Virus record (IMG/VR): IMGVR_UViG_3300042914_003231
Coordinates: 1-64,000 of that record
Reading direction: 5' to 3' (one strand)
From: a virus
Lineage: Duplodnaviria > Heunggongvirae > Uroviricota > Caudoviricetes
Length of the DNA: 64,000 nucleotides
The position numbers were made by a program, and so were the translations under genes. Shown here one piece after another: positions 7,113 to 46,488 of the stretch. How positions within the stretch are numbered: position 1 is the first letter of the stretch; the number at the start of each line of letters is the position of its first letter. The notes beneath the pieces are model-generated. The model had not been told where the DNA came from, searched no databases, and saw nothing but the letters and a program-made list of their open reading frames with translations.

Positions 7113-7128
7113 ACTAATGGATTGTTTA

Positions 7129-7160
7129 AATGTTTAATGTTTAAATGTTTAAATAATAAA
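7129..7160. repeat. tandem repeat (tgtttaaa)x4 just upstream of a leftward gene start
   Basis: tgtttaaatgtttaatgtttaaatgtttaaat is visible directly. Confidence 0.8.
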
Positions 7161-7727: not shown

Positions 7728-8648
7728 TTAGACCTCAGGTTCTAGTCCTTTTAAGAACTGATCAATAGTTGCCTGAAATCTAGGATCGATCTGAATACGC
7801 ATTGCTGCAGTAGTCTTGATTTGCTCCTGGCGGTCAGCTTCGAATGACTCCTTCTCTACCTTAATGGCATCAGAGTATTCATCCATAGCTTTATTCCACT
7901 CATTACGCAACTTCTCATTGCGATTGTTCACCTCAGCTTGCTTTACAGCATTCTCTTTAGCAATGCGAGCATTCTCCTCAGTCACAAGGTTCTTAACCTT
8001 GGCTTTGTAGTAGTTCACGCGTTGCTCATACTTGCGGTGAAGAGTGGCTAAAGTCTCATGATGAGCTAATAACTCTTCAGATGTGTGATGTACTTCTACC
8101 TTAATAGGTGTGCGCTCTCCATCCTTGATAGTTATCCAATCAAGAGCTTTTACCTTAGGTAATTCTTTTCTCAAGCCATCCAATATGGAGTCCTTGTGAA
8201 TGAACTGACCGATGTGAGCAGCATATGCCTCTGCTTCTATATACTCTGCATATTCTGCAGAAGTAAGTTTGTCCCAGCCCCAGTCCTCACCAATAGCTTT
8301 TGCAGCAACAAACTTTTCATAGCTTGGTTGCTCTGGAGCATCTTTTGGTGCTACATAAGACTTCATTCTCAGTTCAATAAGAAGATGGTCTTTAGCCTTA
8401 ATGTTTACCATTAAGAAAGCCTGGGTTGCATGAAGTTTTGCTTTCTCTTGCAACAAGTCAGCAACATCCTTTGGCATAGGTTTACCTACCTCTTGAGTAT
8501 AGGTATCTCCACCAATTTTGAATGTCTTAGTAGCATTATTGATACCACTTAACTTGTTGTTGATCTCTAATGCGCGCTGGTAGCACAAGTTAGAAATACT
8601 TTGAGCCTGAGAAAGGCTTAATCCGGTTTTAGACAAATGATGTCTCAT
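7728..8648 (-). CDS. hypothetical coiled-coil protein
   Basis: 306-aa ORF rich in K/E/A heptads. Confidence 0.55.
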   Translation of the reverse strand: MRHHLSKTGLSLSQAQSISNLCYQRALEINNKLSGINNATKTFKIGGDTYTQEVGKPMPKDVADLLQEKAKLHATQAFLMVNIKAKDHLLIELRMKSYVAPKDAPEQPSYEKFVAAKAIGEDWGWDKLTSAEYAEYIEAEAYAAHIGQFIHKDSILDGLRKELPKVKALDWITIKDGERTPIKVEVHHTSEELLAHHETLATLHRKYEQRVNYYKAKVKNLVTEENARIAKENAVKQAEVNNRNEKLRNEWNKAMDEYSDAIKVEKESFEADRQEQIKTTAAMRIQIDPRFQATIDQFLKGLEPEV

Positions 8649-8680
8649 GATCTTTATGGTTTCCTATACACCATTAGGTT

Positions 8681-9718
8681 TTAAGTTGTTTTATTTTCTT
8701 TCCATTGAATTCCTGGACAGTAGTTCTCTTTAACAGTCATAATATACTGCCAAAAGAATTTGAAGAACTGACCTAAGCCAGATCCTATAACTATAAAGAA
8801 TTTAGCAAATGCTACAGCTGCTTTACCAAAGGTTCTTCCAAACCATGAGTTGCATATACATACAGCACATTTAGTAAATATTCTAGCAAACATCCATACT
8901 ATAAGCACTATAATTCCTACAAATACTAAAATAATTCCAGCATTTCTTAAGAATCTCCAAAGCTTATCTGGATAAAAGTGGGCCCAAGCATAGTCAATAA
9001 CTAACCATACACCGTATGCTATAATTATTAAGAGAGCTATTGCAATAATATAACCTATCCATTTAGTATACTTTACTATATTAGTAAACATCTGTTGTGT
9101 TCTTTTCTTAGCAACTTCTCTAGCTTCCCATTCTTGTTTTTCTTTAAGAGCTAACTCTTCTTGTAGTTTTTTTCTATCTTCAGCAGCTTTTAACCAGCTA
9201 TCTTTTATTTTTTGTCTCATCTCTTTAAGCTTAAGTTCCCAATCAGGATTATCTTGCTTCCAAAGATCAAACTTCTTTCTCATAGCTTTTTTCTTATACT
9301 CTTTTGTACCATAGATAGGATCTTTACCATCTTTATCTAAGAAGTATTCATCTCTCATGAAATGATAATATTCCCAGTCAGCTTCTGAATTACTTCCACG
9401 AGTCCATTCATGATTATAGTTAACTACCCATGCTTTCATAATATCATCCTCTCCCATAATTCTAGCAGCTTGTCTAACTAAAGGTTCACAGATCTTCTGA
9501 TCAAACCAGTCTGTAGACTTCTCTATAAACCAGACAAATCCCTTAACTATTAATAGAATAAGCTTTACTAATGGTACAATAGGTATGATAAAAGTTACTA
9601 GTATACAAAAATTTGTAAGCCAGAAGTAAGGACAGAAGTTGTTGAATCTAGGCGGGTTATTAAAGACAAACCTCTGTAGTCTTCTATGCCATCCATTAGA
9701 ATTTAATGTTATTTCCAT
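8681..9718 (-). CDS. membrane protein (N- and C-terminal TM segments, central coiled coil)
   Basis: 345 aa; long hydrophobic stretches at both ends. Confidence 0.55.
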   Translation of the reverse strand: MEITLNSNGWHRRLQRFVFNNPPRFNNFCPYFWLTNFCILVTFIIPIVPLVKLILLIVKGFVWFIEKSTDWFDQKICEPLVRQAARIMGEDDIMKAWVVNYNHEWTRGSNSEADWEYYHFMRDEYFLDKDGKDPIYGTKEYKKKAMRKKFDLWKQDNPDWELKLKEMRQKIKDSWLKAAEDRKKLQEELALKEKQEWEAREVAKKRTQQMFTNIVKYTKWIGYIIAIALLIIIAYGVWLVIDYAWAHFYPDKLWRFLRNAGIILVFVGIIVLIVWMFARIFTKCAVCICNSWFGRTFGKAAVAFAKFFIVIGSGLGQFFKFFWQYIMTVKENYCPGIQWKENKTT

Positions 9719-15078: not shown

Positions 15079-15151
15079 TGGACTCATAGCTCAGTAGGTA
15101 GAGCGCAGGACTGAAAATCCTGCCGCACTGGTTCGATTCCAGTTGAGTCCA
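15079..15151 (+). tRNA. tRNA-Phe (GAA)
   Basis: acceptor ggactca/tgagtcc, anticodon loop cuGAAaa, T-loop ggttcgattcc. Confidence 0.8.
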
Positions 15152-15156
15152 CACAA

Positions 15157-15239
15157 GCCGACACTGTAGAGTGGGAGATCTACACCAGACTGTAAATCTG
15201 GAGTCTTAGACTTTGGGAGTTCGAATCTCTCTGGCGGCA
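15157..15239 (+). tRNA. tRNA-Tyr (GTA), long variable arm
   Basis: anticodon stem ccaga/tctgg with loop ctGTAaa; one acceptor mismatch. Confidence 0.7.
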
Positions 15240-15244
15240 CAAAA

Positions 15245-15331
15245 GGAAGGTTGGCAGAGCCTGGCCGATTGCACCAGTCTTGAAAACTGGAGGTCCCTTG
15301 GATCCGTGAGTTCGAATCTCACACCTTCCTC
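15245..15331 (+). tRNA. tRNA-Ser (TGA), long variable arm
   Basis: acceptor ggaaggt/accttcc; loop ctTGAaa. Confidence 0.75.
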
Positions 15332-15333
15332 AA

Positions 15334-15371
15334 CATGCATAGAAAAATGCACTTTTCTATACATGTTTTTT
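15334..15371 (+). terminator. rho-independent terminator inside the tRNA array
   Basis: 13-bp stem catgcatagaaaa/ttttctatacatg followed by TTTTTT. Confidence 0.55.
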
Positions 15372-15392
15372 GAAAGTGCATAAAAACTATAC

Positions 15393-15440
15393 ATCTCTAG
15401 CTCAACTGGCGGAGCAGCGGTCTCCAAAACCATAAAGCAG
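15393..15440 (+). pseudogene. truncated tRNA-Trp-like fragment (D-arm plus anticodon arm only)
   Basis: tagctcaactggcggagc D-arm and ggtctccaaaacc shared with the intact tRNA-Trp downstream; no T-arm or acceptor 3' strand. Confidence 0.45.
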
Positions 15441-15469
15441 TTTGGATACTGAAGTAAAAACATGTATAT

Positions 15470-15817
15470 TTGTACATGCCTTCAAAAAATAAAGAAATAC
15501 TAAAAAAGCATAGAGATGCTTGGTATAAAAAGAATAAAAAAAAACAGATTACTAACCAGCTTGAAAAAAGACAGGAATTAAAGAAATGGTTTCAGGAATA
15601 TAAGAGATCATTATCTTGTAAAGAGTGTGGATTTAGCTTTGAATTATTTCCAGAATGTTGTGATTTCCATCACAGAGATGGAGATACAAAGAAAGATGTA
15701 GTAAGCAGATTGCTACCAATGGGAATAAAAGCACTAAAGAAAGAGATTGAAAAATGTGATCCTCTTTGTGCTAATTGTCATAGAAAGCTCCATGCAAAAT
15801 TAGAATATACAGGTTAG
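15470..15817 (+). CDS. HNH homing endonuclease
   Basis: CDFHHRDGD...N...LCANCHRKLH HNH motif. Confidence 0.8.
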   Translation: MYMPSKNKEILKKHRDAWYKKNKKKQITNQLEKRQELKKWFQEYKRSLSCKECGFSFELFPECCDFHHRDGDTKKDVVSRLLPMGIKALKKEIEKCDPLCANCHRKLHAKLEYTG

Positions 15818-15880
15818 CTTATTGGAAGCACCAGGTCTCCAAAACCTCGGATGGAAGGAGTTCGATTCTCTTAACCTGTG
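15809..15880 (+). tRNA. tRNA-Trp (CCA)
   Basis: acceptor acaggtt/aacctgt, loop cuCCAaa, T-loop ttcgatt; overlaps the HNH stop codon. Confidence 0.6.
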
Positions 15881-15885
15881 CACAA

Positions 15886-15957
15886 GGTACCGTGGGTGAG
15901 GGGTTTAGCCTCAGGTCTGCAAAACCTGCTACGTCTGTTCGAATCAGACCGGTACCT
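15886..15957 (+). tRNA. tRNA-Cys (GCA)
   Basis: acceptor ggtaccg/cggtacc, anticodon stem caggt/acctg, loop ctGCAaa. Confidence 0.75.
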
Positions 15958-15958
15958 C

Positions 15959-16174
15959 ATGAAAGAGATAGATGAAGAGTTCAACTTACTTCAGTTGTAC
16001 ATCTATGATTGCATCAACCGGATGTGTTTGAATGCATACATAGATAAGACTAAGTGTTCTCATCACCCTTTGTATACTTTTGAAGAATACAAAACGGCAA
16101 TATGGGATCCTTGGACTGGAGAGACTGTAGCAAGTAGAACAAGATGGGCTTTAAATATTAAGCCTTTATTTTAG
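15959..16174 (+). CDS. hypothetical small protein embedded in the tRNA array
   Basis: 71 aa starting at the first ATG after tRNA-Cys; its stop codon abuts tRNA-Ser. Confidence 0.4.
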   Translation: MKEIDEEFNLLQLYIYDCINRMCLNAYIDKTKCSHHPLYTFEEYKTAIWDPWTGETVASRTRWALNIKPLF

Positions 16175-16257
16175 AGAAGTGGCTGAGTGGCTTAAGGCAC
16201 CGCACTGCTAACGCGGAGGATGTAACAGTTCCACCGGTTCGAATCCGGTCTTCTCTG
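16173..16257 (+). tRNA. tRNA-Ser (GCT), long variable arm
   Basis: acceptor agagaag/cttctct; loop ctGCTaa. Confidence 0.7.
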
Positions 16258-16262
16258 CAAAT

Positions 16263-16343
16263 GCCCATATGGTGGAATGGTAGACGCGCTGGTCTTAGGA
16301 ACCAGTACCGTAAGGTATGTAGGTTCGAGTCCTACTATGGGTA
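16263..16343 (+). tRNA. tRNA-Leu (TAG)
   Basis: anticodon stem ctggt/accag, loop ctTAGga, long variable arm. Confidence 0.75.
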
Positions 16344-16348
16344 CATAT

Positions 16349-16431
16349 ACTCCTGTGGTGTAATTGGTAGCCGCGCTAGGCTTAAGACTCAGTGGACTTA
16401 GTCCGTGCCGGTTCGAGTCCGGCCAGGAGTA
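16349..16431 (+). tRNA. tRNA-Leu (TAA)
   Basis: acceptor actcctg/caggagt; loop ctTAAga; long variable arm. Confidence 0.7.
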
Positions 16432-16682
16432 CTTTGCTCACCTGATTAATAAAGTGACCAAAAATTATTACACTGTCTACCAATCAGTTAGACCTTCTGA
16501 AGAAAATATTTTTGGTAGACTCAAACAAACCTATTATATTTGTCTTGCAAATGAAACGCATACAACATATCCAGATGGCCAATACAGGCAGAAATACGGT
16601 GGAGATTAAAGATCCGACCGTGTCCATGGGTGTTGCATGTAGTTTTAGATAAGACATTTTTAGTTAGCTAAACCGCATTAAA

Positions 16683-16709
16683 CCCCTGGACAAGTTCTAG
16701 GGGTTTTTT
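16683..16709 (+). terminator. rho-independent terminator
   Basis: stem cccctgg/ctagggg followed by TTTTTT. Confidence 0.55.
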
Positions 16710-16718
16710 GTTTTACCC

Positions 16719-16791
16719 CGGGATGTAGATCAGTTGGTAGATTGCGTGCTTTGGGAGCATGAGGTCGCAGGTTCGAGCCCTGTCATCCCGA
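16719..16791 (+). tRNA. tRNA-Pro (TGG)
   Basis: acceptor cgggatg/catcccg; loop ttTGGga. Confidence 0.75.
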
Positions 16792-16847
16792 CTAGCAGAA
16801 GTGGTACTCCAGTGCCCGTACTGAAAACCAAACAAAACTGGAGACAT

Positions 16848-16920
16848 GGGGTTCAAGCACAAGCGGACGTGCATTAGCTTTGCAAGCTAGAGGATCTCGG
16901 TTCGAGGCCGAGGAGCTCCA
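16848..16920 (+). tRNA. tRNA-Ala (TGC) with G3:U70
   Basis: acceptor ggggttc/gagctcc carrying the G3:U70 wobble identity pair; D-arm gcac-aagcggac-gtgc; loop ttTGCaa; T-arm ctcgg-ttcgagg-ccgag. Confidence 0.65.
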
Positions 16921-16921
16921 C

Positions 16922-17083
16922 ATGAATGAAGAACTATATAATTGGCTGGAGAAGATGTTTATGTTCTCCAATATCCCTAAGTACAGGAAGTACTTTAAGG
17001 AATGGGTGGACAACATAACTGAAGATCAGATCACCGGTTTTCAGAGAATGATGGGAGCCAACTATAAGATTAAGCAGGAATAG
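16922..17083 (+). CDS. hypothetical small protein embedded in the tRNA array
   Basis: 53 aa, from the first ATG after tRNA-Ala; its stop codon overlaps the start of tRNA-Gly. Confidence 0.35.
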   Translation: MNEELYNWLEKMFMFSNIPKYRKYFKEWVDNITEDQITGFQRMMGANYKIKQE

Positions 17084-17148
17084 CTCATCCTTGGTAGAGC
17101 TCCAGTCTTCCAAACTGGAGGTGGCGAGTTCGAGCCTCGCTTCCTGCT
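17074..17148 (+). tRNA. tRNA-Gly (TCC)
   Basis: acceptor gcaggaa/ttcctgc; loop ctTCCaa. Confidence 0.75.
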
Positions 17149-17331
17149 CACAACTGCAGTGCCCATGTACAGTGGGGGTACAATCACTGCAGGTAGAAGA
17201 GTGCTAAGAAATCCGGTGTTGGGTTAGCTCTGGACACTAAGGTAAGGAGTGGGTAAGGACCACAGTCCCCGTCTAACAGGGACAAAGTTTTGCAAAAGCC
17301 TTCCCTGGGATGGAGCACTCTTCATGATATT

Positions 17332-17407
17332 GGTCTGTTAGGGGAGTCCGGCCGTCCCTACCTCACTGTCTATGAGGGGATCACGGGTTCGAATCCCGTA
17401 CAGACCG
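17332..17407 (+). tRNA. tRNA-Asp (GTC)
   Basis: acceptor ggtctgt/acagacc; anticodon stem cctca/tgagg, loop ctGTCta. Confidence 0.7.
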
Positions 17408-17518
17408 CTGGGCGGTAGTCTAATGAGCAGGGTTAGTAGCGTGCTGACTAACTAGTCTTAGGACGATCATCTTATGGGATGATAGATATCAGTAACCATT
17501 CTGATCTGCCCCACCAAT

Positions 17519-17590
17519 TGCCCCTTAGCTCAGCGGTAGAGCAAAACCCTGTTAAGGTTGAGGTCCTAGGTTCAATCCCTAGAGGGGCAG
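17519..17590 (+). tRNA. tRNA-Asn (GTT)
   Basis: acceptor tgcccct/aggggca; loop ctGTTaa. Confidence 0.7.
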
Positions 17591-17595
17591 CAAAT

Positions 17596-17670
17596 AGACG
17601 AGTAGCTCAGCCTGGTTAGAGCGCCCGCCTGATACGCGGAGGGTCACAGGTTCAAATCCTGTCTTGTCTA
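17596..17670 (+). tRNA. tRNA-Ile (GAT)
   Basis: loop ctGATac; T-loop ttcaaat. Confidence 0.7.
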
Positions 17671-17727
17671 CTTTGGGACCGTTTGGTAGTGACATAGTCT
17701 TGAACTAGATCATAGAAACTATCACAT

Positions 17728-17800
17728 AGGAGTATAGCTCAGTTGGGAGAGCATCCGGTTTACATCCGGACGGTCCAAGGTTCGAGTCCTTGTATTCCTA
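17728..17800 (+). tRNA. tRNA-Val (TAC)
   Basis: anticodon stem tccgg/ccgga, loop ttTACat. Confidence 0.75.
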
Positions 17801-17885
17801 CAAACTTTAAAGATTTAAACTTATAATGTTTACACTATTAAAATATAAGGTTATAAAGAGAAGGATAAAACCTTAACTCATTATT

Positions 17886-17957
17886 CCCTCATAGCTTAGT
17901 GGTAAAGCAGTATACTTTTAATATACGGAGCGGCAGTTCGATTCTGCCTGGGGGAAC
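17886..17957 (+). tRNA. tRNA-Lys (TTT)
   Basis: perfect anticodon stem gtata/tatac, loop ctTTTaa. Confidence 0.75.
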
Positions 17958-17963
17958 TTTAAA

Positions 17964-18035
17964 CCCCCGTAGCTCAATGGAAGAGTAAGAGACTTCTAAG
18001 CTCAAGGTTACCAGTTCGAGTCTGGTCGGGGGTTC
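17964..18035 (+). tRNA. tRNA-Arg (TCT)
   Basis: acceptor acccccg/cgggggt; loop ctTCTaa (anticodon stem imperfect). Confidence 0.6.
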
Positions 18036-18041
18036 TGAATA

Positions 18042-18114
18042 GGCCCTTAGCTCAGTTGGTTAGAGCAGTACTCTTATAAGGTAAAGGTCACCGGTTCAAA
18101 CCCGGTAGGGCCTA
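18042..18114 (+). tRNA. tRNA-Ile (TAT), reads AUA
   Basis: acceptor aggccct/agggcct; loop ctTATaa. Confidence 0.6.
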
Positions 18115-18124
18115 CATAATATTT

Positions 18125-18199
18125 AGCGGGGTGACTGGAGTTGGTTCCAGCACAGCCTCATAAACTGTACAGACGCGGGTTCGAGTCCCGCCCCCGCTA
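18125..18199 (+). tRNA. tRNA-Met (CAT)
   Basis: acceptor agcgggg/ccccgct; loop ctCATaa. Confidence 0.7.
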
Positions 18200-18265
18200 C
18201 AATGAGTGCTAATGACACCTGATAAAGGAGGGGATATATTACCAGGTCCCCCGACACTCAGTAAC

Positions 18266-18337
18266 GCTCCCATCATCTAGGGGTCAGGATATCAGGTTTT
18301 CGACCTGAGCACCAGGGTTCGAATCCCTGTGGGAGTA
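18266..18337 (+). tRNA. tRNA-Glu (TTC)
   Basis: anticodon stem tcagg/cctga, loop ttTTCga. Confidence 0.7.
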
Positions 18338-18342
18338 CTTAA

Positions 18343-18415
18343 GCTTGAGTAGCACAATTGGTAGTGCACCTCCCTTGTAAGGAGAAGGTTGTCAGTTCGA
18401 GTCTGACCTCAAGCT
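18343..18415 (+). tRNA. tRNA-Thr (TGT)
   Basis: acceptor gcttgag/ctcaagc; loop ctTGTaa. Confidence 0.75.
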
Positions 18416-18417
18416 CT

Positions 18418-18491
18418 GTGTCTGTAGAGGAATTGGTAGACTCCCCGGAATGTGGATCCGGTGCTTGTGGGTTCAAGTCCCATCAGACACC
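18418..18491 (+). tRNA. tRNA-His (GTG)
   Basis: acceptor gtgtctg/cagacac; anticodon stem ccgga/tccgg, loop atGTGga. Confidence 0.7.
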
Positions 18492-18497
18492 CCATTA

Positions 18498-18571
18498 GTT
18501 CTCATAGCTCAATTGGATAGAGTCCTTGACTACGGATCAAGAGGTTGAAGGTTCGACTCCTTCTGAGAACA
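18498..18571 (+). tRNA. tRNA-Arg (ACG)
   Basis: acceptor gttctca/tgagaac; anticodon stem cttga/tcaag, loop ctACGga. Confidence 0.75.
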
Positions 18572-18576
18572 CATAA

Positions 18577-18647
18577 TGCCCTTTCGTCTAACGGCAGGAC
18601 CTGTGGTTTTGGGCCACATGATCGAGGTTCGAATCCTTGAGGGGCAA
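18577..18647 (+). tRNA. tRNA-Gln (TTG)
   Basis: anticodon stem tgtgg/ccaca, loop ttTTGgg. Confidence 0.65.
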
Positions 18648-18716
18648 CTAGTTTTTTATTGTTTGCACATCCAAAGTTTTTTTGTATATTAGCAATAATT
18701 TTCATATATTATTAAT

Positions 18717-38507: not shown

Positions 38508-40133
38508 ATGGCAACTCCAGTATTAAACAATGGTATATTCTTGCGCGACACGAATTACCATGCTACATCACATGTAGACAGTTATCACCTTCAGAACATG
38601 TTAAAAGATGCTGAACCAATGGATATGGGACCGGTAGATATTTGGGCAATGACTCAAAAGGTAGAAATGCCTCTTTACCAGTTATCATCTTTTGGTGGTA
38701 AAAATATCATCATGGTTGATAATGTCCGTGGTGAATATAAATGGCAAACTCCTGTATCACAGGATTTACCTTACATTATTGAGGACATCGAGCCTACAAA
38801 CTTAGCTAAAGGTCAGGATGGCACAACCTTCCGTATCAAGATTAACAAGCGTGAGTTTGGTCATGGTGATATCATCACTTATGACAAATACAATGGTGTC
38901 GAGTTATACATTACTGCTGATGATATCTTACCTATGGGTGACGGTTTCATCTACACTGTGCAGTTGGTAAACAATGACAACTACAAATTCTTAGACAACA
39001 AGTATTTAGTTCCTCAAACCAAATTATTCCGTAAAGGTTCTGCCCGCGGTGAGTATGGAGAAAGATTCTCTGACATCCAAACTCGCTCTGGCTTCCGTGA
39101 GTTCTACAACTTCGTAGGAGGAGCAGAAGCACATGTTCACTACTCTATCAGCTCTCGTGCTGACTTACAAATCAAGGGTGGTATGAATGCAGATGGTACA
39201 GTTCCTGTAACTGAGATCTGGAGAAACTTTGATAAACAATTAGACCCTTCAATCAGTAAGATCGAAGACATCGCTTCAAAGATGGGTAAAGACTACTTGA
39301 AGCGTGCAGTGGGTAATGGTACCTTAACCCGTACCTTCTTAACCTCTATGGAGGCTGCTCACTTAACTAAGATTTCTACTGACATTGAGACCTATTTAAT
39401 GTGGGGTCATGGTGGACGCGTTAAGCAAGATGGACCAGATGACATCCGTATGTCAGTGGGTCTATGGAAACAGCTTGACAACTCTTACAAGCGCGTATAC
39501 AACAAGTCAAGCTTTAGCTTAGAATTGTTCCGTGCTGAGTTATACAACTTCTATGCAGGTCGTGTTGAGTTCCAAGGTCCGGATCCAAAACGCTCATTGA
39601 TTGTACAAACAGGTATGGGTGGTATGCGCTTAGTAAATGAGGCTATCAAGCGTGAAGCTGTAAACTCAGGTTTAGTTATCCAAGCTGCTAGCAACAATGG
39701 TATTGGTGCTATCACAGGTCAAGGTATGGACTTAAACTATGGCTTTGCATTCACAAGCTATGTAATTCCATTCTTAGCAAATGTTAAGTTTGTGTTAAAC
39801 CCTGCGTTTGACAACTTACATACTAATGACATTGAGAACCCAATCATTGATGGTAACCCATTATCATCATACAGCTTTGTGATCTTCGACATCACAGACA
39901 CTGGTAACGACAACATCTACATGTTGAAGTTATCTTGGGATAACCAATTAAAATGGTGGTACCAGAATGGTACAATGGACTACATGGGACGTACCCAAGG
40001 CTTCCAGTCTTCTGGACAGTTTAACGGTTACCGTGTATACATGAGCCAAACTATGCCAGCTATCTGGGTGAAAGACCCTACCAAAGTGTTGAAGATTGTT
40101 ATGCGCAATCCGATCACTGGTGGTTCTTTCTAA
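38508..40133 (+). CDS. putative major capsid protein
   Basis: 541 aa directly after the scaffold gene; followed by a GC-rich hairpin element. Confidence 0.4.
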   Translation: MATPVLNNGIFLRDTNYHATSHVDSYHLQNMLKDAEPMDMGPVDIWAMTQKVEMPLYQLSSFGGKNIIMVDNVRGEYKWQTPVSQDLPYIIEDIEPTNLAKGQDGTTFRIKINKREFGHGDIITYDKYNGVELYITADDILPMGDGFIYTVQLVNNDNYKFLDNKYLVPQTKLFRKGSARGEYGERFSDIQTRSGFREFYNFVGGAEAHVHYSISSRADLQIKGGMNADGTVPVTEIWRNFDKQLDPSISKIEDIASKMGKDYLKRAVGNGTLTRTFLTSMEAAHLTKISTDIETYLMWGHGGRVKQDGPDDIRMSVGLWKQLDNSYKRVYNKSSFSLELFRAELYNFYAGRVEFQGPDPKRSLIVQTGMGGMRLVNEAIKREAVNSGLVIQAASNNGIGAITGQGMDLNYGFAFTSYVIPFLANVKFVLNPAFDNLHTNDIENPIIDGNPLSSYSFVIFDITDTGNDNIYMLKLSWDNQLKWWYQNGTMDYMGRTQGFQSSGQFNGYRVYMSQTMPAIWVKDPTKVLKIVMRNPITGGSF

Positions 40134-40261
40134 GAACTCGTGCTCTAGAGGGAGTCTTCCATGCTCCCTCTTACATGAGCACCTTGCCCGGGGATGCGTT
40201 CACCACAGAGCTCGCAACTCTGCCCGGGAACAAAACTTTACAACTTTTAAAAACTAAAACA
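40134..40261 (+). other. GC-rich structured element (nested hairpin plus duplicated gcccggg palindromes)
   Basis: cgtgctc-tagagggag...ctccctc...gagcac nested inverted repeats; cccggg occurs twice. Confidence 0.4.
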
Positions 40262-41053
40262 ATGAAACTATTCACTAATCAGATTGCCAATACATTTTCT
40301 ACTGTAAAACAATTTGTAACATTTGTCGGTGGAAACCGTGCATATGCAACTGTAGCACAGCTTAATGAAATTATCACTAAGCTTTCTCCTATGTATAAAG
40401 TCACAACTTATCCTAATAACATTGTTGCTAAAGATTTTTCTTTAAACAATCCAGTTCTTTCAAGTAGAGAAAAATTTGTTTATAATACAGTTTTTAAACC
40501 TTCTGTTTTTACAGCTTTAAATCCTGGTTTTAAATTGAATATTATTGACATAGAAAATCAATCAGAGTTAACATCTGTTGAAAGACTTGAAGTTGTAATA
40601 GGATATGAAGGCTTAAATAATTGGGATGGTGGAGATTTTCAACTTTGGTTAGGAAATTCTCTTGTTGCAACTATTCCTTCAGCTACTATGACTAATACTA
40701 GTGGAACACCTAATTATTCAAAATCATTACTTGTACCTATTACAAATGTTATAGAACTAGCTACTGGTACTTATACAGCAGGAGTTTCTGGAAGAGGTAT
40801 TCAATTTAACAATCCTAAAACAATGTTTAACATCAGATTAACTTCTAAAACTACTAGTTTTATAGGAGCTGTAGGATTAAATATGATTGTTGCAAAACAA
40901 AATAATGCGGGATGTGGTACATGGTGTGAAACAACTTGTAATTTTAATGATCCTGCTAGTACTGTTTATTGTAGTATTATAGCAGGTAATAAATGTAGCT
41001 ATTGCAAAATTCCAAATGGAGCTTGGGATTCAGGTGATGTAAATCCTGTATAA
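40262..41053 (+). CDS. structural protein
   Basis: start moved to the ATG after the hairpin element (MKLFTNQ...). Confidence 0.45.
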   Translation: MKLFTNQIANTFSTVKQFVTFVGGNRAYATVAQLNEIITKLSPMYKVTTYPNNIVAKDFSLNNPVLSSREKFVYNTVFKPSVFTALNPGFKLNIIDIENQSELTSVERLEVVIGYEGLNNWDGGDFQLWLGNSLVATIPSATMTNTSGTPNYSKSLLVPITNVIELATGTYTAGVSGRGIQFNNPKTMFNIRLTSKTTSFIGAVGLNMIVAKQNNAGCGTWCETTCNFNDPASTVYCSIIAGNKCSYCKIPNGAWDSGDVNPV

Positions 41054-41081
41054 CCTTATAAACCAACAATAAACCAACAAT

Positions 41082-42101
41082 ATGAGTACAGTAACAATCG
41101 TCTCTACTGCAGAGACAGCAAAATCAGGTGGTATATCCATCAAACCGTTCTTTGATCCAAACAAACAAAATATGGGCCTTGAAAAATACGGCCTTGCTTT
41201 GTTTGATGGCATTTTTCATGAAGAGCAATTAGCTTGCCTTGAAAGAAATGGTCAAAAAAGATACTTAACCGGACTTAATGAGTTTTCTCCAGATGTAAAA
41301 AACATCCCTAATCCTGAAGACAGGGAAGCAAAGATCAAAGAGATTCGTACTGTAGTAGCTCAACTTGAGAGAGAATTGGCTTCTAATGTTATTGATCCTA
41401 AAGATCCCGAGTTCTGGAACAAGGTTCAGTTACTTAGACCAGATAATGATGATTTGTGGTCTAAGATCACAATTCGTTGTGGTAATGAACCAGTAATTCT
41501 TGATCCTTCTAGAGAACCGTATGATCTTATCAAAATCTATGCTATTGAAGCCGGTGGATTTTCTCTTGTAGCTAAAAGCTATGAGGATGCGCGTAGCAGA
41601 GCTGTATCACCAAAATTCTTTTTGGATAAATACACAGAAACTGTATCTACCAAAACAGAAGTTACCAAGATCCGTAACAAAGCCTTGGCTGAGCTTATCA
41701 AGTTATTTGATAAGAACCAGAACAAGTTATTCTTAGTTGCAAAAGTTGTGGATGGTAATAGTGTTCAGTACAAGAAGTCTACTCCTAATGATATTGTTTA
41801 TGATAACATGGACCGCTTCATTACAGGACAAGGTGTTGAGAAAAACATGAAGCGTGCTGCTCAGAGCTTTATCGATGCTTGTGCTATGAGCATGGAAGAA
41901 TTAAAGATCAAAGCCTTGATCAAAGATTCTACCTACTACAAGTTTATTCAGTTAAAAGCTGATGGCTTTATCTACCACACAGACACTTCTACTCTAATGG
42001 GTAAGAATGTATCAGACTGTTTTGAGTTCTTGAAGAATCCTTTACACGATGCAGTGTTACTGGATCTTACTCAAAAGGTAGAAAAGTACTGGAATGTGTA
42101 A
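41082..42101 (+). CDS. hypothetical structural protein
   Basis: 339-aa ORF. Confidence 0.5.
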   Translation: MSTVTIVSTAETAKSGGISIKPFFDPNKQNMGLEKYGLALFDGIFHEEQLACLERNGQKRYLTGLNEFSPDVKNIPNPEDREAKIKEIRTVVAQLERELASNVIDPKDPEFWNKVQLLRPDNDDLWSKITIRCGNEPVILDPSREPYDLIKIYAIEAGGFSLVAKSYEDARSRAVSPKFFLDKYTETVSTKTEVTKIRNKALAELIKLFDKNQNKLFLVAKVVDGNSVQYKKSTPNDIVYDNMDRFITGQGVEKNMKRAAQSFIDACAMSMEELKIKALIKDSTYYKFIQLKADGFIYHTDTSTLMGKNVSDCFEFLKNPLHDAVLLDLTQKVEKYWNV

Positions 42102-42119
42102 TAAGAAAAACAACATACA

Positions 42120-42338
42120 ATGGCAACAAAAAAAATGAAAACTGGTGGGATGACAAATCCTAATAAAGCAGTAACAGTGAGCAAGACTCCTACTAAGTAT
42201 ACTGGCGGAAAGAATGCTTCGGCTTCGGTACAAAAAGTTACTCCTAAAGCAAGTGTAACTAAAGGCTCTAATGCTTCGGCAAAAGTGTCTCCATCTAAGA
42301 AGATGGGTGGTTCTACAAAAAGTAAGAAAAGTTGTTAA
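42120..42338 (+). CDS. small basic Lys-rich protein 1 (C-terminal KKMGGSTKSKKSC)
   Basis: 72 aa, K/T/S-rich. Confidence 0.5.
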   Translation: MATKKMKTGGMTNPNKAVTVSKTPTKYTGGKNASASVQKVTPKASVTKGSNASAKVSPSKKMGGSTKSKKSC

Positions 42339-42387
42339 ACCAGAAATGGCCCCAGAGAAATCTGGGGTCTTTCTATAAACCAAACAC

Positions 42388-42591
42388 ATGGCAAAAATAA
42401 CAAATAAAGTAGATAAAGAGTACCAAGCTAAATGGGATCTTGATACGCTAAGACAAGCTAAAGAAATTCAAAGCAATACTGCTAGAATGAAAGCTGCTCA
42501 AAACTATGCTAAAGAACAAGTAAAAATGTTAGGTGGTATTGTATCTGACAAAGGTAAAGCACCCGCAAGAAAATCTTCTAGGAAGAAATAA
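42388..42591 (+). CDS. small basic Lys-rich protein 2
   Basis: 67 aa, ends ...GGIVSDKGKAPARKSSRKK. Confidence 0.5.
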   Translation: MAKITNKVDKEYQAKWDLDTLRQAKEIQSNTARMKAAQNYAKEQVKMLGGIVSDKGKAPARKSSRKK

Positions 42592-42592
42592 T

Positions 42593-42751
42593 ATGTCTGA
42601 TAAAAAATGGATCCAAAAAGCCACAGCTTCCATCAAACGTAGAGGAACTGAAGGCAAATGTACTCCTATTACAAAACCAGGATGTACAGGTAAAGCAAAA
42701 GCTTTAGCAAAAACTTTTAAAAAAATGGCAGCAGCCAGAAAAGGAAAATAA
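42593..42751 (+). CDS. small basic Lys-rich protein 3
   Basis: 52 aa from the internal ATG (MSDKKWIQKATASIKRRGTEGKCTPITKPGCTGKAKALAKTFKKMAAARKGK). Confidence 0.45.
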   Translation: MSDKKWIQKATASIKRRGTEGKCTPITKPGCTGKAKALAKTFKKMAAARKGK

Positions 42752-42752
42752 C

Positions 42753-42980
42753 ATGGCAAAGAAATTAATAAAAAAACAAACTGGTGGAGTAAGTTCCGGA
42801 CAAAGAGCTCAACAAAAAATGGATTCCTTGTACAATGCTAATAAAGCAAGAACAAAGGCTATGTATGATTCTATGATGAAAAGCGTACCTAAAGCACAAG
42901 CTCCGAAAGCTAAAGATAGTACAAAAGTCACAATAACCAAGAAAAAAATGGGTGGTTCAAGTAAATCTAAAAAATGTTAG
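42753..42980 (+). CDS. small basic Lys-rich protein 4 (C-terminal KKKMGGSSKSKKC)
   Basis: C-terminal tail paralogous to protein 1. Confidence 0.5.
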   Translation: MAKKLIKKQTGGVSSGQRAQQKMDSLYNANKARTKAMYDSMMKSVPKAQAPKAKDSTKVTITKKKMGGSSKSKKC

Positions 42981-42981
42981 C

Positions 42982-43266
42982 ATGGCAAAAAAAACACCAG
43001 CATGGACAAGAAAAGAAGGTAAGAATCCTTCTGGAGGCTTGAATAAAAAAGGAGTAGCTTCATACAGAAAAGAAAATCCAGGTAGTAAATTGCAAACTGC
43101 AGTAACTACTAAACCTTCAAAATTAGATCCTGATAGTAAGGATGCTAAAAGAAGAAGCTCTTTTTGTTCTAGAATGGAAGGTATGAAGAAAAAACTTACT
43201 TCATCTAAAACAGCAAAAGATCCTAACTCAAGAATTAACAAGTCATTAAGAAAATGGAATTGTTAA
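42982..43266 (+). CDS. small basic Lys-rich protein 5
   Basis: start at the internal ATG (MAKKTPAWTRKEGKNPSGG...). Confidence 0.45.
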   Translation: MAKKTPAWTRKEGKNPSGGLNKKGVASYRKENPGSKLQTAVTTKPSKLDPDSKDAKRRSSFCSRMEGMKKKLTSSKTAKDPNSRINKSLRKWNC

Positions 43267-43340
43267 ATTTAAGATTTATGAATACACTTTATTAAAGGTG
43301 GTAAAAACAAGTAGTAAAATAAAATTTAAAAAGAAATAAC

Positions 43341-43520
43341 ATGTCCGGATTAAAAAAAGGCTCTAAGAGCACAGGTGGTATAGATGCTACAAACCTTAAA
43401 GTGATCAAGCACTATAATGATACATTTGAGGACAATAACAAAAAAAGAAATCAACCTCGAGTAGAGGTGATGCAAGAATTCTTTCCTAATGGGAAAGCTC
43501 CTAAAGCTAAAAGAAAATAA
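43341..43520 (+). CDS. small basic Lys-rich protein 6 (59 aa, absent from the ORF track)
   Basis: ATG at 43341 to TAA at 43518-43520: MSGLKKGSKSTGGIDATNLK...KAPKAKRK. Confidence 0.4.
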   Translation: MSGLKKGSKSTGGIDATNLKVIKHYNDTFEDNNKKRNQPRVEVMQEFFPNGKAPKAKRK

Positions 43521-44224
43521 TGCAAAATTCCGCTATACTCATAAAGGTTCAGGAAAGGTTGAACAAGATCTCTAGCAGTGACTATGATAACATAGAACCG
43601 TGGCAGATTATTGAAGCCTTCTGTAAGGCCCAAGTCGATTGGTGCCGTAGAAATCTTCATGGTTTGAACATTAAAAAAGAAGGTGATGAACAGTCAACTA
43701 GAAGAATAGATGACCTTCAGAAATTGTTGATTGCATCTCCTATAATAATGAATAACAAGCAAACCTATTATGAGAGTGTAACCTTTCCTGCTGATTACTT
43801 ACAATGGAAAAGAGTATCTTGTCAAGCAACAAGTGAATGCTGCTCTAGTCCTAAACCTATGGTTGTTTATTTAGCTGAAGTAGCTAATGAAGATGAACTT
43901 TTAAGAGATCTTAATAAACAACCTAGTTTTGAGTGGGGAGAAACATTTGCTACTCTATTAAATAATACTTTAAGAATCTACACTAATGGTTTATTTACTC
44001 CGGTTCAGGTAGAGTTTTACTATTACCGTCAACCAAGAAGAATTCAAATAGCCGGTGTTGTAGATCCTTACACAGGAAATACATCTGCTACAGATGTTAT
44101 ATCAGAATTCAAAGATGACCTAGTAGAGGTTATGATCGATGAAGCTGTTAAGATCTTAGCTGGTGATATAGAGTCAATGACTCAATACCAAAGAGCAAGT
44201 CAATCTGTAGAAAACAATAATTAA
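43520..44224 (+). CDS. hypothetical structural protein
   Basis: 234-aa ORF. Confidence 0.5.
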   Translation: MQNSAILIKVQERLNKISSSDYDNIEPWQIIEAFCKAQVDWCRRNLHGLNIKKEGDEQSTRRIDDLQKLLIASPIIMNNKQTYYESVTFPADYLQWKRVSCQATSECCSSPKPMVVYLAEVANEDELLRDLNKQPSFEWGETFATLLNNTLRIYTNGLFTPVQVEFYYYRQPRRIQIAGVVDPYTGNTSATDVISEFKDDLVEVMIDEAVKILAGDIESMTQYQRASQSVENNN

Positions 44225-44226
44225 CA

Positions 44227-44649
44227 ATGACAATAACTAGACCATTAAAAGGAACAAACAATAAGGAATCTCTTGAAGGTTCTGTTGCAAATTGTGTAAC
44301 TGAGCTAATGAATGCAGCTACAACATTTCATAAATTGCATCTTAAAGTAAGAGGTACTGGAGCATATGCTGCTCACAAAGCTCTTAATGAACTTTATACC
44401 GCATTACCCGAGCATGCAGATGCATTAGCTGAAGGATTCCAAGGAGCTTGTGAAAAGCTATTAGAGTGTTCAGATATGATCCCAAGAAAGGTTGAATCAG
44501 TAGATGAGGCAATAACTTACATAAGAGATCTTACTACTATGGTGAATAATCTTCAGAGTAAAATGCCATATTCAGAAATAGTGAATGAACTTGACACAGT
44601 TAAGGATACTTTTAACTCTGCCAAGTACAAATTATTATTTTTAAAATAA
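44227..44649 (+). CDS. hypothetical protein
   Basis: 140-aa ORF. Confidence 0.5.
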   Translation: MTITRPLKGTNNKESLEGSVANCVTELMNAATTFHKLHLKVRGTGAYAAHKALNELYTALPEHADALAEGFQGACEKLLECSDMIPRKVESVDEAITYIRDLTTMVNNLQSKMPYSEIVNELDTVKDTFNSAKYKLLFLK

Positions 44650-44719
44650 ATTTGCACAAAAGATAAAGATTTTGTATATTAGTATTATTATTTATTTATA
44701 AACCTAAAAAAGAAAAAAA

Positions 44720-46114
44720 ATGAGTTATTTTAACCATGCCTTCTCCAAGCAATTTCTTGGAACCGGCCCAACCCGCAACCTGGTTAGTACTGGCGCAGCT
44801 GCTTCAGTAACCAACCCTTTTTCAAACGGTGGTTTCATCTTGACCCCTGGTACAAGCACAACCACTTTATCAAATCTTCCAGCAGGTACTACTAACTTGC
44901 CTAAATCAGGTTACTTTGGATTTTTTGATCCAAACACTTACCTGTCTATTGATCCAACATTGACGACTTACAACTGTTGTCCTTTAGTGTTAGCTTCGGC
45001 TTCATTATTGACTAATGACAAGATTGGTCCTTTTCACGGTGGTTACCGCGAGACTAACAAATCTAAGGTAATTAATCCTAAGTATGTACAAAAAGCATAC
45101 AAGGTTACTACTTGCGTTCCTCAACAAACTGTAGTTTCTGTAGGTAGCACTCCTCAAACTCTTTTACCAACTGTTCCTGAAAAATTCCAAGGTGGTACAA
45201 CTTCTGCAACATGTTGTTTTACTTTCCTTTGTGGTGAAACATACTACTTACGCGTAGATATTAAAGGTTCTCCTGCACTTCGTGCTTTGAATCACAATGC
45301 TTACCAAACAGTAGATGCTTATACAGGTTGCTGTGCAGGACCTACTCCAACACCGGTTGACTCTACTTTAGTGTTCATTCAGTGGGCTGAGCAAATCATT
45401 CAAAATAACTACTTAAAGCCTTTTGTGCTTCCAGTAGTATTTGATCAAACTGGTGCTGCATGGTATGCTCCTGGTACTACAGTAGATCCTATTACTTTAG
45501 CTCCAGTATTACCAGCTCAGTGGTGGACTGCTTATGTGTCTCCAGGATATACTACAGGTGCTTGTGGTGGTATGCGTTTATTCGGTGCCTTTGTTGAGAC
45601 AAAGTTTGGTAACTGTACTTTCCAAGTAACTGATTTCTTCGAGAAAGAGCCAATTAAGATTTATGCCTCTATGGTTGACTACACTGGTGATCCTTGTGTA
45701 TTCGAAGGAATTTGTGTGTATAACGACTGCCTTGGCTTACAAGGTATGGGCTTTGGTGAACAAGTTGTTCGTGACTTGATCCTTTCTGAATCATACTTAC
45801 AAAACTTCTTTGCAAGTAATGACTTCCGTGTGAGAGAGATCACTCAAGGTTATGACATCTTGAACTCTGTAAACCGTAATGCATTGTACACTCGTTACTT
45901 CTTGTTACATAGTGTGCCTCGTTTCAACAACCCTACTGGTGTGTTTGATAATGATCGTTACATGCTTGAGATTATTGTTCCTGAGGTTAACCCTCTTGTG
46001 CCGGTAGGAAATCCAGCATTGGATACCTTCTTGACCAACTGGTTAGCAAGTTGTGCAAACTGTGTACCTTTTGAAACACAATCTTGTACATACTGTACTC
46101 CAGAAAACAACTAA
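44720..46114 (+). CDS. abundant virion structural protein (alternative major capsid or major tail candidate)
   Basis: 464 aa; followed by a very strong terminator. Confidence 0.5.
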   Translation: MSYFNHAFSKQFLGTGPTRNLVSTGAAASVTNPFSNGGFILTPGTSTTTLSNLPAGTTNLPKSGYFGFFDPNTYLSIDPTLTTYNCCPLVLASASLLTNDKIGPFHGGYRETNKSKVINPKYVQKAYKVTTCVPQQTVVSVGSTPQTLLPTVPEKFQGGTTSATCCFTFLCGETYYLRVDIKGSPALRALNHNAYQTVDAYTGCCAGPTPTPVDSTLVFIQWAEQIIQNNYLKPFVLPVVFDQTGAAWYAPGTTVDPITLAPVLPAQWWTAYVSPGYTTGACGGMRLFGAFVETKFGNCTFQVTDFFEKEPIKIYASMVDYTGDPCVFEGICVYNDCLGLQGMGFGEQVVRDLILSESYLQNFFASNDFRVREITQGYDILNSVNRNALYTRYFLLHSVPRFNNPTGVFDNDRYMLEIIVPEVNPLVPVGNPALDTFLTNWLASCANCVPFETQSCTYCTPENN

Positions 46115-46131
46115 AATTATAAGCCTAGAAA

Positions 46132-46161
46132 GAAGGGGAGGGGGGAACTCCTCCCTTTTTT
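46132..46161 (+). terminator. strong rho-independent terminator
   Basis: ggggagg...cctccc followed by TTTTTT. Confidence 0.65.
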
Positions 46162-46167
46162 GTTAAT

Positions 46168-46488
46168 ATGCAGTCTATTCTTAGATGTAAAAAGCCGAGT
46201 TGCTCAAATAGTTTCGAGCAAACTAGAAAAGACAGAGTCTATTGTTCTAGACACTGTAAGACTACGCATAAGACTAACAAAAGCAAGAAGAAAAAGCAAA
46301 AGCCCTATACAATTTTTAAAAAAGATATTTGTGAAAATTGTAAATTTGTACCTATCCATTCTTGCCAGTTAGATGTAGATCATATTGATGGTGATAATAA
46401 TAACAATCAGCCATACAATCTGAGAACCTTATGTGCAAACTGTCATAGGCTAAAAACATTTATGAGTGAGGATTGGAAAAAAGTTTAA
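46168..46488 (+). CDS. HNH homing endonuclease (second copy)
   Basis: LDVDHIDGDNNNNQPYNLRTLCANCHRLK. Confidence 0.75.
   Translation: MQSILRCKKPSCSNSFEQTRKDRVYCSRHCKTTHKTNKSKKKKQKPYTIFKKDICENCKFVPIHSCQLDVDHIDGDNNNNQPYNLRTLCANCHRLKTFMSEDWKKV

Follow-up and report, generated by a model that had tools for sequence, protein, structure and literature searches.

The 64-kb stretch of DNA analyzed here (positions 1 to 64,000 of the IMG/VR virus record IMGVR_UViG_3300042914_003231, referred to below as the window) carries, at positions 42120-43520 of its + strand, six consecutive open reading frames (ORFs), named p1 to p6, that encode small lysine-rich proteins. The cluster is one instance of an accessory, hypervariable cassette array located between two conserved head/neck genes, named up339 and dn234. 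The initial annotation had described six such ORFs of 52-94 amino acids (aa), one of them missing from its ORF track. All six are present on the + strand, and the missing one is p6, whose 59 aa fall under the 60-aa default minimum of the ORF tool, which could account for the gap. The proteins are as basic as had been claimed, with 18.6-25% lysine, isoelectric points (pI) of 10.1-10.7 and net charges of +8 to +19 each (+84 in sum), and lysine is far more frequent than arginine. All six lie on the disordered side of the charge-hydropathy plot, where intrinsically disordered polycations are found. The exception to this disordered behavior is p5, for which the AlphaFold2 (AF2) model shows four helices at moderate confidence (mean predicted local distance difference test, pLDDT, 71.8); a Foldseek search of that model against the PDB returned nothing at E<=10. 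No other genuine ORF in the window shares the composition or the tail described below.

We collected relatives of the locus from IMG/VR via up339, via dn234, and via a DNA pattern for the tail motif. The resulting 126 loci with both border genes contain 95 distinct intervening sequences, of which 47 are empty (8-259 bp) and 48 are filled with 1-13 genes each (330-4148 bp). The filled sites encode 298 unique array proteins, whose medians are 81 aa in length and 20% in lysine content, and the pI exceeds 9.5 in 96% of them. Clustering with composition-based statistics and a coverage filter divided them into 50 families and 60 singletons, whereas uncorrected single-linkage merged unrelated K-rich proteins. 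The order of families is never common to arrays of different contigs, near-identical pairs excepted. The p1 family has 39 members across 28 arrays and is mostly the first gene of its array. The families of p5, p3, p2, and p6 were found in 38, 23, 14, and 8 of the 48 arrays, respectively, while p4 is a singleton under strict clustering, with a core that has no close family. In a few distant relatives, K-rich ORFs lie 3' of dn234 or 5' of up339 instead. The coordinates of the array genes and of other features of the window are given in Table 1.

Table 1 Features of the array region and of its surroundings in the window.
Feature	Coordinates	Strand	Description
p1	42120-42338	+	72 aa; zero acidic residues; family f1
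Terminator-like hairpin	42348-42369	+	GGCCCCAGAGAAATCTGGGGTC then TTTCT; within the 49-nt spacer 3' of p1
p2	42388-42591	+	67 aa; family f4 (YQAKWDLDTLRQAKEI...KMLGGIV); K/R-rich tail
p3	42593-42751	+	52 aa from ATG; family f3 (KKWIQKATASIKRRGTEGKCTPITKPGCTGKAKALAKTFKKMA); two conserved Cys
p4	42753-42980	+	75 aa; head MAKKLIKKQTGG; tail KKKMGGSSKSKKC
p5	42982-43266	+	94 aa from ATG; stand-alone DUF6321 (family f2); conserved end LRKWNC
p6	43341-43520	+	59 aa; family f8 (..KKRNQPRVEVMQEFF..KAKRK); last gene of the array
up339	41082-42101	+	Conserved 339-aa gene; left border of the array site
dn234	43520-44224	+	Conserved 234-aa gene; right border; phrog_29507 'virion structural protein', E 4.7e-14
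Crass_capsid gene	38508-40133		Capsid
292-aa gene	40175-41053		Cys-rich C-terminus
DUF5856/Dps-like gene	44227-44649		Ferritin-fold, 'starvation-inducible DNA-binding'; two genes 3' of the array; kept in most relatives
p464	44720-46114		Cys-rich 464-aa gene; no Pfam, PHROG or phage-record match
Terminator-like hairpin	46135-46154		Strong; GGGGAGGGGGGAACTCCTCC then TTTTTT; directly 3' of the 464-aa gene
HNH endonuclease gene	46168-46488		Follows the hairpin at 46135-46154
tRNA genes	15080-18648	+	24 genes incl. Lys(UUU), Gly(UCC), two each of Ile, Arg, Leu, Ser; small ORFs in between, one HNH-like (15476-15817)

The six ORFs cover the region almost without gaps, with spacers of 1 nucleotide (nt) at p2/p3, p3/p4, and p4/p5, and the p6 stop overlaps the dn234 start (ATAATG). 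No Shine-Dalgarno (SD)-like sequence is visible 5' of any of the six starts. The program-made ORF list gives p3 as a GTG-extended 72-aa form from 42533 and starts p5 at a GTG at 42952. The hairpin 3' of p1 has nine pairs, six of them G-C, and is the top + strand terminator-like site between 37000 and 47500. At the related loci L065, L007, and L012, the second gene starts 2-5 nt past the first, and there is no space for a hairpin of this type. The G+C content (GC) of the array resembles that of its flanks, on which ground a foreign origin by base composition was rejected; the AT skew over the array is 0.28-0.41.

Substitution patterns indicate that p1, p2, p3, p5, and p6 are real genes under purifying selection. 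The ratio of nonsynonymous to synonymous substitution rates (dN/dS) against relatives is 0.09-0.15 for p3, 0.13-0.17 for p5, 0.15-0.19 for p2, and 0.27-0.34 for p1 (compared with L065 and L084). For these four genes dS is about 0.7-1.4. For p6 the ratio is 0.14-0.22 where dS could be estimated, dS being saturated in most p6 pairs. Short ORFs in A-rich, low-complexity DNA with overlapping ORFs on the opposite strand might be chance open frames, and for four of the six Pfam and PHROG give nothing better than E 0.03. Such a non-coding origin is nevertheless exceedingly improbable, given dN/dS values well under 1, identical gene calls in two independent assemblies, ORFs that tile the region, and families conserved across tens of arrays as well as in unrelated phages; for the five genes named above it is refuted. 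The predicted gene status of p4 rests on its head and tail motifs, its place in the tiling, and one partial homolog, a 129-aa protein of locus L013 whose N-terminal half is 49% identical to p4. A word-indexed search of 5.8 billion proteins with p4 returned only p4 itself at E<=0.01. Likewise, neither p2 nor p3 has a Pfam or PHROG match, and tblastn of each against 50,697 phage records was empty. A near-identity DNA search of the same records with 41000-46200 also found nothing.

In contrast, p5 has a recognizable family. It matches Pfam DUF6321 (PF19846) with E 1.8e-20 and 73.8 bits against a cut-off of 28.5 bits, covering the whole 72-position profile, and it matches PHROG 727 and 4689 among others. 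The residues W8, G18-G19, and F61-C62 and the terminal W-N-C are invariant and common to 31 relatives. Several other candidate families were rejected. For HU/IHF, H-NS, Hc1, and bS21, no such Pfam family was found at E<=1 for the six proteins or at E<=0.01 among 72 array and related proteins, and the KGG stress-protein repeat had no Pfam match. We also note that p1, p4, and p5 all have a C-terminal Cys, and that crAss001 virions are disulfide-stabilised.

The most distinctive property of the array proteins is a pair of terminal motifs. The near-identical tails reported for p1 and p4 are borne out: p1 ends in KKMGGSTKSKKSC and p4 in KKKMGGSSKSKKC, and the underlying 37-nt stretch is 76% identical. 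The two proteins also have in common an N-terminal ..KK-x-(K/Q)-TGG element, with p1 carrying the head MATKKMKTGG and a further internal TKYTGGKN. GG dipeptides had been said to recur throughout the cluster. They do so in p1, p2, p4, p5, and p6, which contain 3, 1, 2, 1, and 1, respectively, but p3 contains none. Across relatives the p1/p4 tail generalises to KK-x-GG-xx-K-x-KKK, and we compared motif frequencies with those in composition-preserving shuffles of the array proteins. In a smaller set of 148 unique proteins, 33 have the tail, where 0.63 were expected (shuffle maximum 4). Among the 298 proteins, 76 have a C-terminal GG-x(1-8)-K-x(0-2)-KK (1.4 expected) and 76 an N-terminal M..(K/Q/M/Y)-x(1-2)-GG head (21.6 expected), and 35 combine a head with a tail (0.14 expected). 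GG dipeptides number 525 against 241 expected, a 2.2-fold excess, with a sharp position 6-7 residues from the C-terminus and the local consensus M-K-K-G-G-S-x-K. Many cassettes can be described, from their predicted products, as a variable core between an M-(A/K)-K-K...K-x-x-G-G head and a K-K-x-G-G-x-x-K-x-K-K-K(C) tail.

The strict tail is almost a signature of this locus. For the scan of all IMG/VR contigs for KKxGGxxKxKKK-stop, an over-specific first DNA pattern gave one locus; a looser pattern, which was then used, gave 73 stretches, of which 61 are real ORFs and 52 of these belong to this lineage. The strict-tail ORFs of the lineage lie at the up339-dn234 site wherever both flanks are present. 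A polybasic GG tail also occurs sporadically outside the crass-like lineage: three IMG/VR contigs of about 5 kb (L138, L143, and L187) encode small, unrelated proteins rich in Arg and Lys that contain VHGGKVESYQD and have the ending ..KKSGGKIKAKKK. The long proteins of L156 (1010 aa) and L182 (541 aa) end in ..ITKKRGGKIKKKKK.

Heads and tails could in principle be mainly nucleic-acid signals. An A-rich AAA AAA TAA-N-ATG GCA AAG AAA junction would then serve SD-independent coupled initiation, the junctions would provide recombination homology for cassette shuffling, and the lysine runs would be a by-product. The junctions are indeed A-rich, with spacers of 1-3 nt or ATGA overlaps, and within one array they share 60-86% DNA identity over 30-60 nt; the AT skew and the lack of visible SD-like sequences described above fit as well. 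We nevertheless consider this very unlikely. The G-G pair and its spacing, which carry no such signal, are the most conserved part, and p1 retains its tail despite the 49-nt hairpin spacer that follows it. Equally tight neighbors that are not array genes have no terminal lysine runs, lysine is enriched along the whole proteins, and long exact repeats are absent. Moreover, the codons vary between tail copies (GGT/GGA/GGC, AAA/AAG, TCA/TCT), which indicates conservation of the motif in the proteins themselves and not simply a repeated DNA element.

The array cores are drawn from a large pool of modules, DUF6321 and the p3 module among them, and unrelated aquatic phages carry the same predicted modules as similar arrays or as KKGG-linked fusions. 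DUF6321 gave tblastn matches in 525 of the phage records, mostly cyanomyoviruses and pelagiphages, and is present in at least 7990 clusters of the protein collection. In genome collections it was found only on aquatic contigs of metagenome-assembled or single-amplified genomes from many phyla, which are probably viral contigs. K-rich basic ORFs lie next to DUF6321 at 33 of 66 other, unrelated loci (three or more in 13 cases), and nine of the 66 are fusions of 150-1181 aa. The Pelagibacter phage HTVC033P (HMO-2011 type) carries a seven-gene K-rich array with DUF6321 at its end, and four members of that array share 55-81% identity with proteins of the crass arrays. HTVC104P has its genes for the capsid, a 41-aa protein, a 43-aa protein (MPGYGMKKKPMMKYGGKV...), and DUF6321 one after another. 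In L001 (Marine virus AG-345-E15), an unannotated record, positions 5245-9245 encode three K-rich proteins in a row (632, 454, and 178 aa), all of them mosaics of these small modules; the 454-aa protein contains a DUF6321 that is 78% identical to p5.

The p3 module is represented in 495 clusters at E<=1e-3 in an exhaustive search. While it stands alone in the window, it is mostly the C-terminal part of K-rich proteins of 100-300 aa; the placements recorded for 119 occurrences comprise 98 C-terminal, 21 internal, and 6 near the N-terminus. A 45-aa p3 module, 80-95% identical to the window copy, also lies in-frame, bracketed by GG (..KKSGG-WIQKA...RKKELGG..), within large proteins unrelated to one another, namely P0331 (749 aa), P0381 (925 aa), and P0279 (495 aa), and is tandemly duplicated in P0242 (304 aa). 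From these placements, p3 appears to behave like a mobile coding module. The fusion linkers, ...KMKKGG-S-TPAWTRKEGK for DUF6321 and ...KKGGxxKxxGK-WIQKA for p3, are the same as the array tail, and some long array proteins hold an internal tail fused to a head. The tail is thus most readily understood as a linker within a modular system whose genes fuse and split at these junctions.

The KKGG joins also raise the idea of a split modular polyprotein, with GG marking linkers or cleavage sites at which a phage or host protease trims the K-rich ends or cuts the fusions, in the manner of adenovirus core-protein precursors or of the T4 internal proteins cut by gp21. The adenain-type cleavage consensus is (M/I/L)XGG-X, and the KMLGG-I of p2 fits it. 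Joins of the expected kind are seen in fused relatives (P0017-type ...KMKKGG-STPAWTRKEGK and P0253 ...KKGGATKMAKGGTVAKAKEGGDKKWIQKA) and in the tail-fused-to-head-like internal segment of a 214-aa protein of L076 (...KNGGSVGKSKMKIGASKSMKKYQMGGS...); the GG pairs that flank the p3 module in P0331, P0381, and P0279, and the fixed distance of GG from both termini, point the same way. The residues that usually precede GG (M at -3, K at -2/-1), on the other hand, misfit the adenain consensus, and flexible GG linkers account for the same data without cleavage. No protease domain was found in 56 window proteins beyond an M15 cell-wall peptidase, and the terms protease, proteolytic, and cleav- are absent from the crAss001 structure paper. 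We regard this explanation as quite unlikely, although processing at GG sites is compatible with the packaging of the array proteins that we favor below.

The location of the cluster within the head/structural module, also asserted by the initial annotation, is confirmed by the flanking genes, the capsid gene on one side and dn234 on the other (Table 1). Pfam matches in the window include Crass_capsid (E 6.7e-32), crAss_MUZ (3.9e-27), CrAss_Ring_2 (2.6e-22), and CrAss_Ring_1 (5.3e-12). The 922-aa portal matches phrog_6547 at 1.5e-91 and shows 22-32% identity by tblastn to crAss-like, Flavobacterium, and Cellulophaga phages. Judged by its capsid, muzzle, rings, and large portal, the array-carrying phage is crassvirus-like. 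The gene order is portal, g433, capsid, g292, up339, p1-p6, dn234, DUF5856/Dps-like gene, and the Cys-rich 464-aa gene; Pfam searches with g433, g292, up339, dn234, and p464 gave no matches. The closest isolate, Leptolyngbya phage Lbo-JY46 (portal 32% identical), has another gene order past the capsid, with only 'hypothetical protein' labels there.

Homologs of up339 were found on 175 IMG/VR stretches and in at least 3292 clusters of the protein collection, which shows that this uncultured lineage is abundant. The protein itself has no Pfam or PHROG match, and its AF2 model (pLDDT 60.8), which lacks the first 69 residues and residues 118-189, gave best PDB matches at E 0.7, which is not significant. 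In Cellulophaga phage phi4:1, gp063 and gp062, the counterparts by position of up339 and dn234, respectively, abut, so that the six genes represent an insertion in a conserved head/neck gene order. The dn234 analog gp062 is a virion protein by tandem mass spectrometry (MS/MS), whereas gp063 has no proteomics-based structural annotation although its neighbors have one.

Besides the K-rich genes, the arrays of relatives contain other ORFs. A 168-aa endonuclease VII-type ORF (PF02945, E 1.1e-23) lies at 9022-9528 of L007, 8601-9107 of L012, and 9721-10227 of L009; in several relatives such an ORF stands at the 3' end of the array, right before the dn234 homolog, an arrangement that parallels the endonuclease-flanked T4-GC119 cassette of cyanomyoviruses discussed below. 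Lipoprotein-like ORFs stand amid the K-rich genes of L009 (about 8217-8864, MKNLIFLIFASSLIISCS..., 215 aa) and L019 (about 7668-7835, MKNLILLSSVLFIISCGSS..., 55 aa). At about 7559-7708 of L065 and 3716-4042 of L085, proteins starting with MAKKCAACEKAKMKK.. carry a single EF-hand/dockerin-like loop, FPDLNKDGK(I/V)TKADILKG, with weak Pfam Dockerin_1 matches (E 0.005). Many of the longer array proteins begin with MKKLGCAKCGGTKKM.., a CxxC element.

Taken together, we tentatively favor, at somewhat less than an even chance, the reading that the array encodes a polymorphic set of packaged, DNA-associated internal proteins, for which the basic GG termini would provide a common route into the head. 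The initial annotation had proposed packaged histone-like, DNA-condensing or ejected internal proteins with the tail as a capsid-targeting or processing signal, a view that the present results support in part. Four observations lead to the favored reading: the position among late head genes and the tight coupling with them, the extreme and uniform polycationic, lysine-specific, and disordered character of the proteins, the host-independent sharing of modules, and the proteomics of T4-GC119. As for the third, modules at 55-81% identity in SAR11 phages, cyanophages, and the crass-like lineage point to a target that does not depend on the host, for instance DNA or the virion. As for the fourth, proteomics of purified S-SM1 virions recovered 13 peptides of T4-GC119, whose C-terminal end is a DUF6321 module as in p5, and the protein is listed in Table S8 as 'Structural protein' (PMC3037559). 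In addition, crAss001 virions have room for about 5 MDa of cargo protein (PMC10172136).

In such a scheme, the array proteins would be produced late, alongside the head proteins, and would end up inside the capsid with the DNA, where their lysines could act as counter-ions or condensing partners of the packaged genome. They would exit the virion before or together with the DNA. Functions specific to a lineage, protection of the incoming DNA among them, may be added by individual cores. The basic GG termini would bring unrelated cores to one place, via DNA or an acidic inner surface of the procapsid, much as the common capsid-targeting sequence does for the diverse T-even internal proteins. The similar tail-stop-start-head junctions would be the sites at which recombination, fusion, and fission renew the content of the array, and the homing-type endonuclease genes at some array ends may contribute to this turnover.

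Several observations weigh against packaging. T4-GC119 was not detected in Syn9 virions, and it has been treated as part of a mobile metabolic-gene cassette with an endonuclease (PMC3037559); its virion evidence, moreover, concerns a 496-aa fusion and not stand-alone DUF6321. About half of the related loci lack the array and have no such genes within 6 kb, which makes it dispensable, like any accessory island. Some arrays hold unrelated cargo of the plasticity type, including lipoprotein-like ORFs, acidic ORFs, and endonuclease VII genes, and the HTVC033P array adjoins a lysis (amidase) gene. DUF6321 is at least 85% identical across 32 aligned relatives of the 120 best clusters, a conservation that far exceeds the need of a mere polycation or counter-ion. 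The missing protease domain and cleavage vocabulary noted above count here as well; crassviruses are not known to have a capsid-targeting mechanism or such a protease, and the array proteins do not resemble T7 gp6.7/gp7.3 or another known internal protein in sequence.

Many of the same facts would suit an ordinary accessory (moron-like) island. Its small basic products would then work inside the infected cell and not in the virion; they might coat or compact the DNA of host or phage, bind ribosomes or RNA in favor of late translation, or block a defence system, and the position in the head module would be only a tolerated insertion hot spot. Presence or absence at a single site (48 filled against 47 empty), the unrelated passengers, and the amidase gene beside the HTVC033P array agree with this, as do the K-rich ORFs that lie 3' of dn234, not 5', in more distant relatives. 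The same is true of T4-GC119 as a member of a mobile endonuclease cassette in a cyanophage hypervariable region that went undetected in Syn9. Random morons, however, would not be expected to have one extreme composition in 96% of 298 proteins, many with head and tail motifs, and modules 55-81% identical across phages of unrelated hosts speak against host-specific targets. The presence of T4-GC119 in S-SM1 virions argues against it too, and Pfam gives no ribosomal, HU/IHF, or known anti-defence family. We hold an accessory island to be possible but somewhat unlikely.

The packaging reading can also be extended beyond this lineage. A pan-aquatic-phage system of mobile, GG-delimited, lysine-rich modules might form a DNA-condensing and ejected protein complement that is loaded via the polybasic GG tail, has been missed by trypsin-based proteomics, and does not figure in present models of crassvirus, pelagiphage, and cyanophage particles, a proposal we put forward as doubtful. 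Its modules (DUF6321, the p3 module, and dozens more) may take the form of stand-alone genes, tandem arrays, fusions, and in-frame insertions. Literature searches for DUF6321, for lysine-rich proteins of crAss-like or freshwater phages, and in the HTVC033P paper found no description of the arrays or of DUF6321.

If the proteins are packaged, they would constitute an undescribed counter-ion or cargo set in environmental crass-like phages, in HMO-2011-type and other pelagiphages, and in T4-like cyanophages, which are among the most abundant aquatic phages. Such a set would bear on the condensation and release of DNA, on virion stability at differing ionic strength, and on the first minutes of infection. 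The finding itself supplies DUF6321 with a first functional hypothesis. If the proteins are not packaged, the locus would still be a well-defined hypervariable accessory island with an unusual common head and tail grammar. In either case, presence or absence at a fixed site provides a clean natural experiment between array-plus and array-minus relatives.

The array can be compared with several known systems. The T4-GC119 proteins of cyanomyoviruses (S-SM1 SSM1_115, P-HM1 PHM1_110, and S-B43 QDH50481) have a C-terminal DUF6321 that is 63-67% identical to p5 and a further module also present as a 112-aa array protein, and they lie in a hypervariable region with an endonuclease. However, T4-GC119 is a single multi-module protein of 230-700 aa, encoded in a myovirus between the terminase and tail-sheath genes and devoid of the KKxGGxxKxKKK tail, whereas the array has separate genes and a stand-alone p5. 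In the pelagiphages, HTVC033P gp42-gp36 and HTVC104P gp78-gp76 are runs of 41-96-aa ORFs, mostly with 17-36% Lys, on the strand of the structural genes and with stand-alone DUF6321 last. The HTVC104P trio directly follows the capsid gene, and its gp78 is hydrophobic. These phages differ in being podovirus-like with SAR11 hosts, they do not use the strict tail, and all of these genes are annotated as hypothetical proteins.

The T7 proteins gp6.7 and gp7.3 are virion proteins of about 90-100 aa encoded among structural genes, and the T7 record states that gp6.7 is injected into the host cell. They offer a functional precedent for virion proteins of this small, basic-looking type. Their likeness to the array is one of composition only: gp7.3 starts with MGKKVKKAVKK and contains AGGKKS, gp6.7 ends in SAFGGKK, and both differ from the array proteins in having acidic middle parts. 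Homology to them (PF11653 VirionAssem_T7; DUF5476) was rejected, as blastp against the 298 array proteins gave no match at E 1e-4. The six window proteins have no Pfam match to PF11653 or DUF5476, and one related array protein hits PF11653 at E 0.0064. In encapsulins, a short conserved C-terminal cargo-loading peptide sends unrelated proteins inside an HK97-fold shell. That peptide is Gly/hydrophobic whereas the array tail is polybasic; the tail is a short candidate tag for loading foreign proteins into crassvirus capsids.

The cargo proteins of crassviruses come from the same virus order, occupy a cargo zone of the capsid from which they are expelled ahead of the DNA, and vary in their sets by group, but they are 60-277 kDa in size, mostly folded and helical, and encoded downstream of the muzzle gene (PMC10172136). 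Small polybasic proteins have not been reported among this cargo (PMC10172136), and trypsin-based mass spectrometry could easily miss them; most tryptic peptides of the array proteins would be too short for identification.

By profile match p5 belongs to DUF6321, while the array as such matches no described family. It seems most like the locus of the T-even internal proteins (IPI, IPII, IPIII, and the polymorphic Ip set), yet lacks the defining sequence features of that locus. Those proteins are small, packaged in large numbers, and diverse between related phages: T4 contains about 1000 internal protein molecules, a diverse set with only a capsid-targeting sequence in common, whose lysines contact DNA phosphates, and the injected IPI* counters host restriction (PMC3012670). 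The 48 differing arrays, with heads and tails common to unrelated cores, resemble this arrangement. The T4 signal, however, is N-terminal and targets the scaffolding core of the prohead, whereas the array proteins have a polybasic GG head and tail. Their N-termini (MAKK, MATKK, MSDKK, or MSGLKK) have no hydrophobic leader ending in Glu, the window encodes no corresponding protease domain, and the two sets show no sequence similarity. In conclusion, the array would be of a known kind, that of polymorphic, probably packaged basic proteins or of an accessory island, and what is new is the locus-specific head-core-tail grammar of its small lysine-rich proteins.

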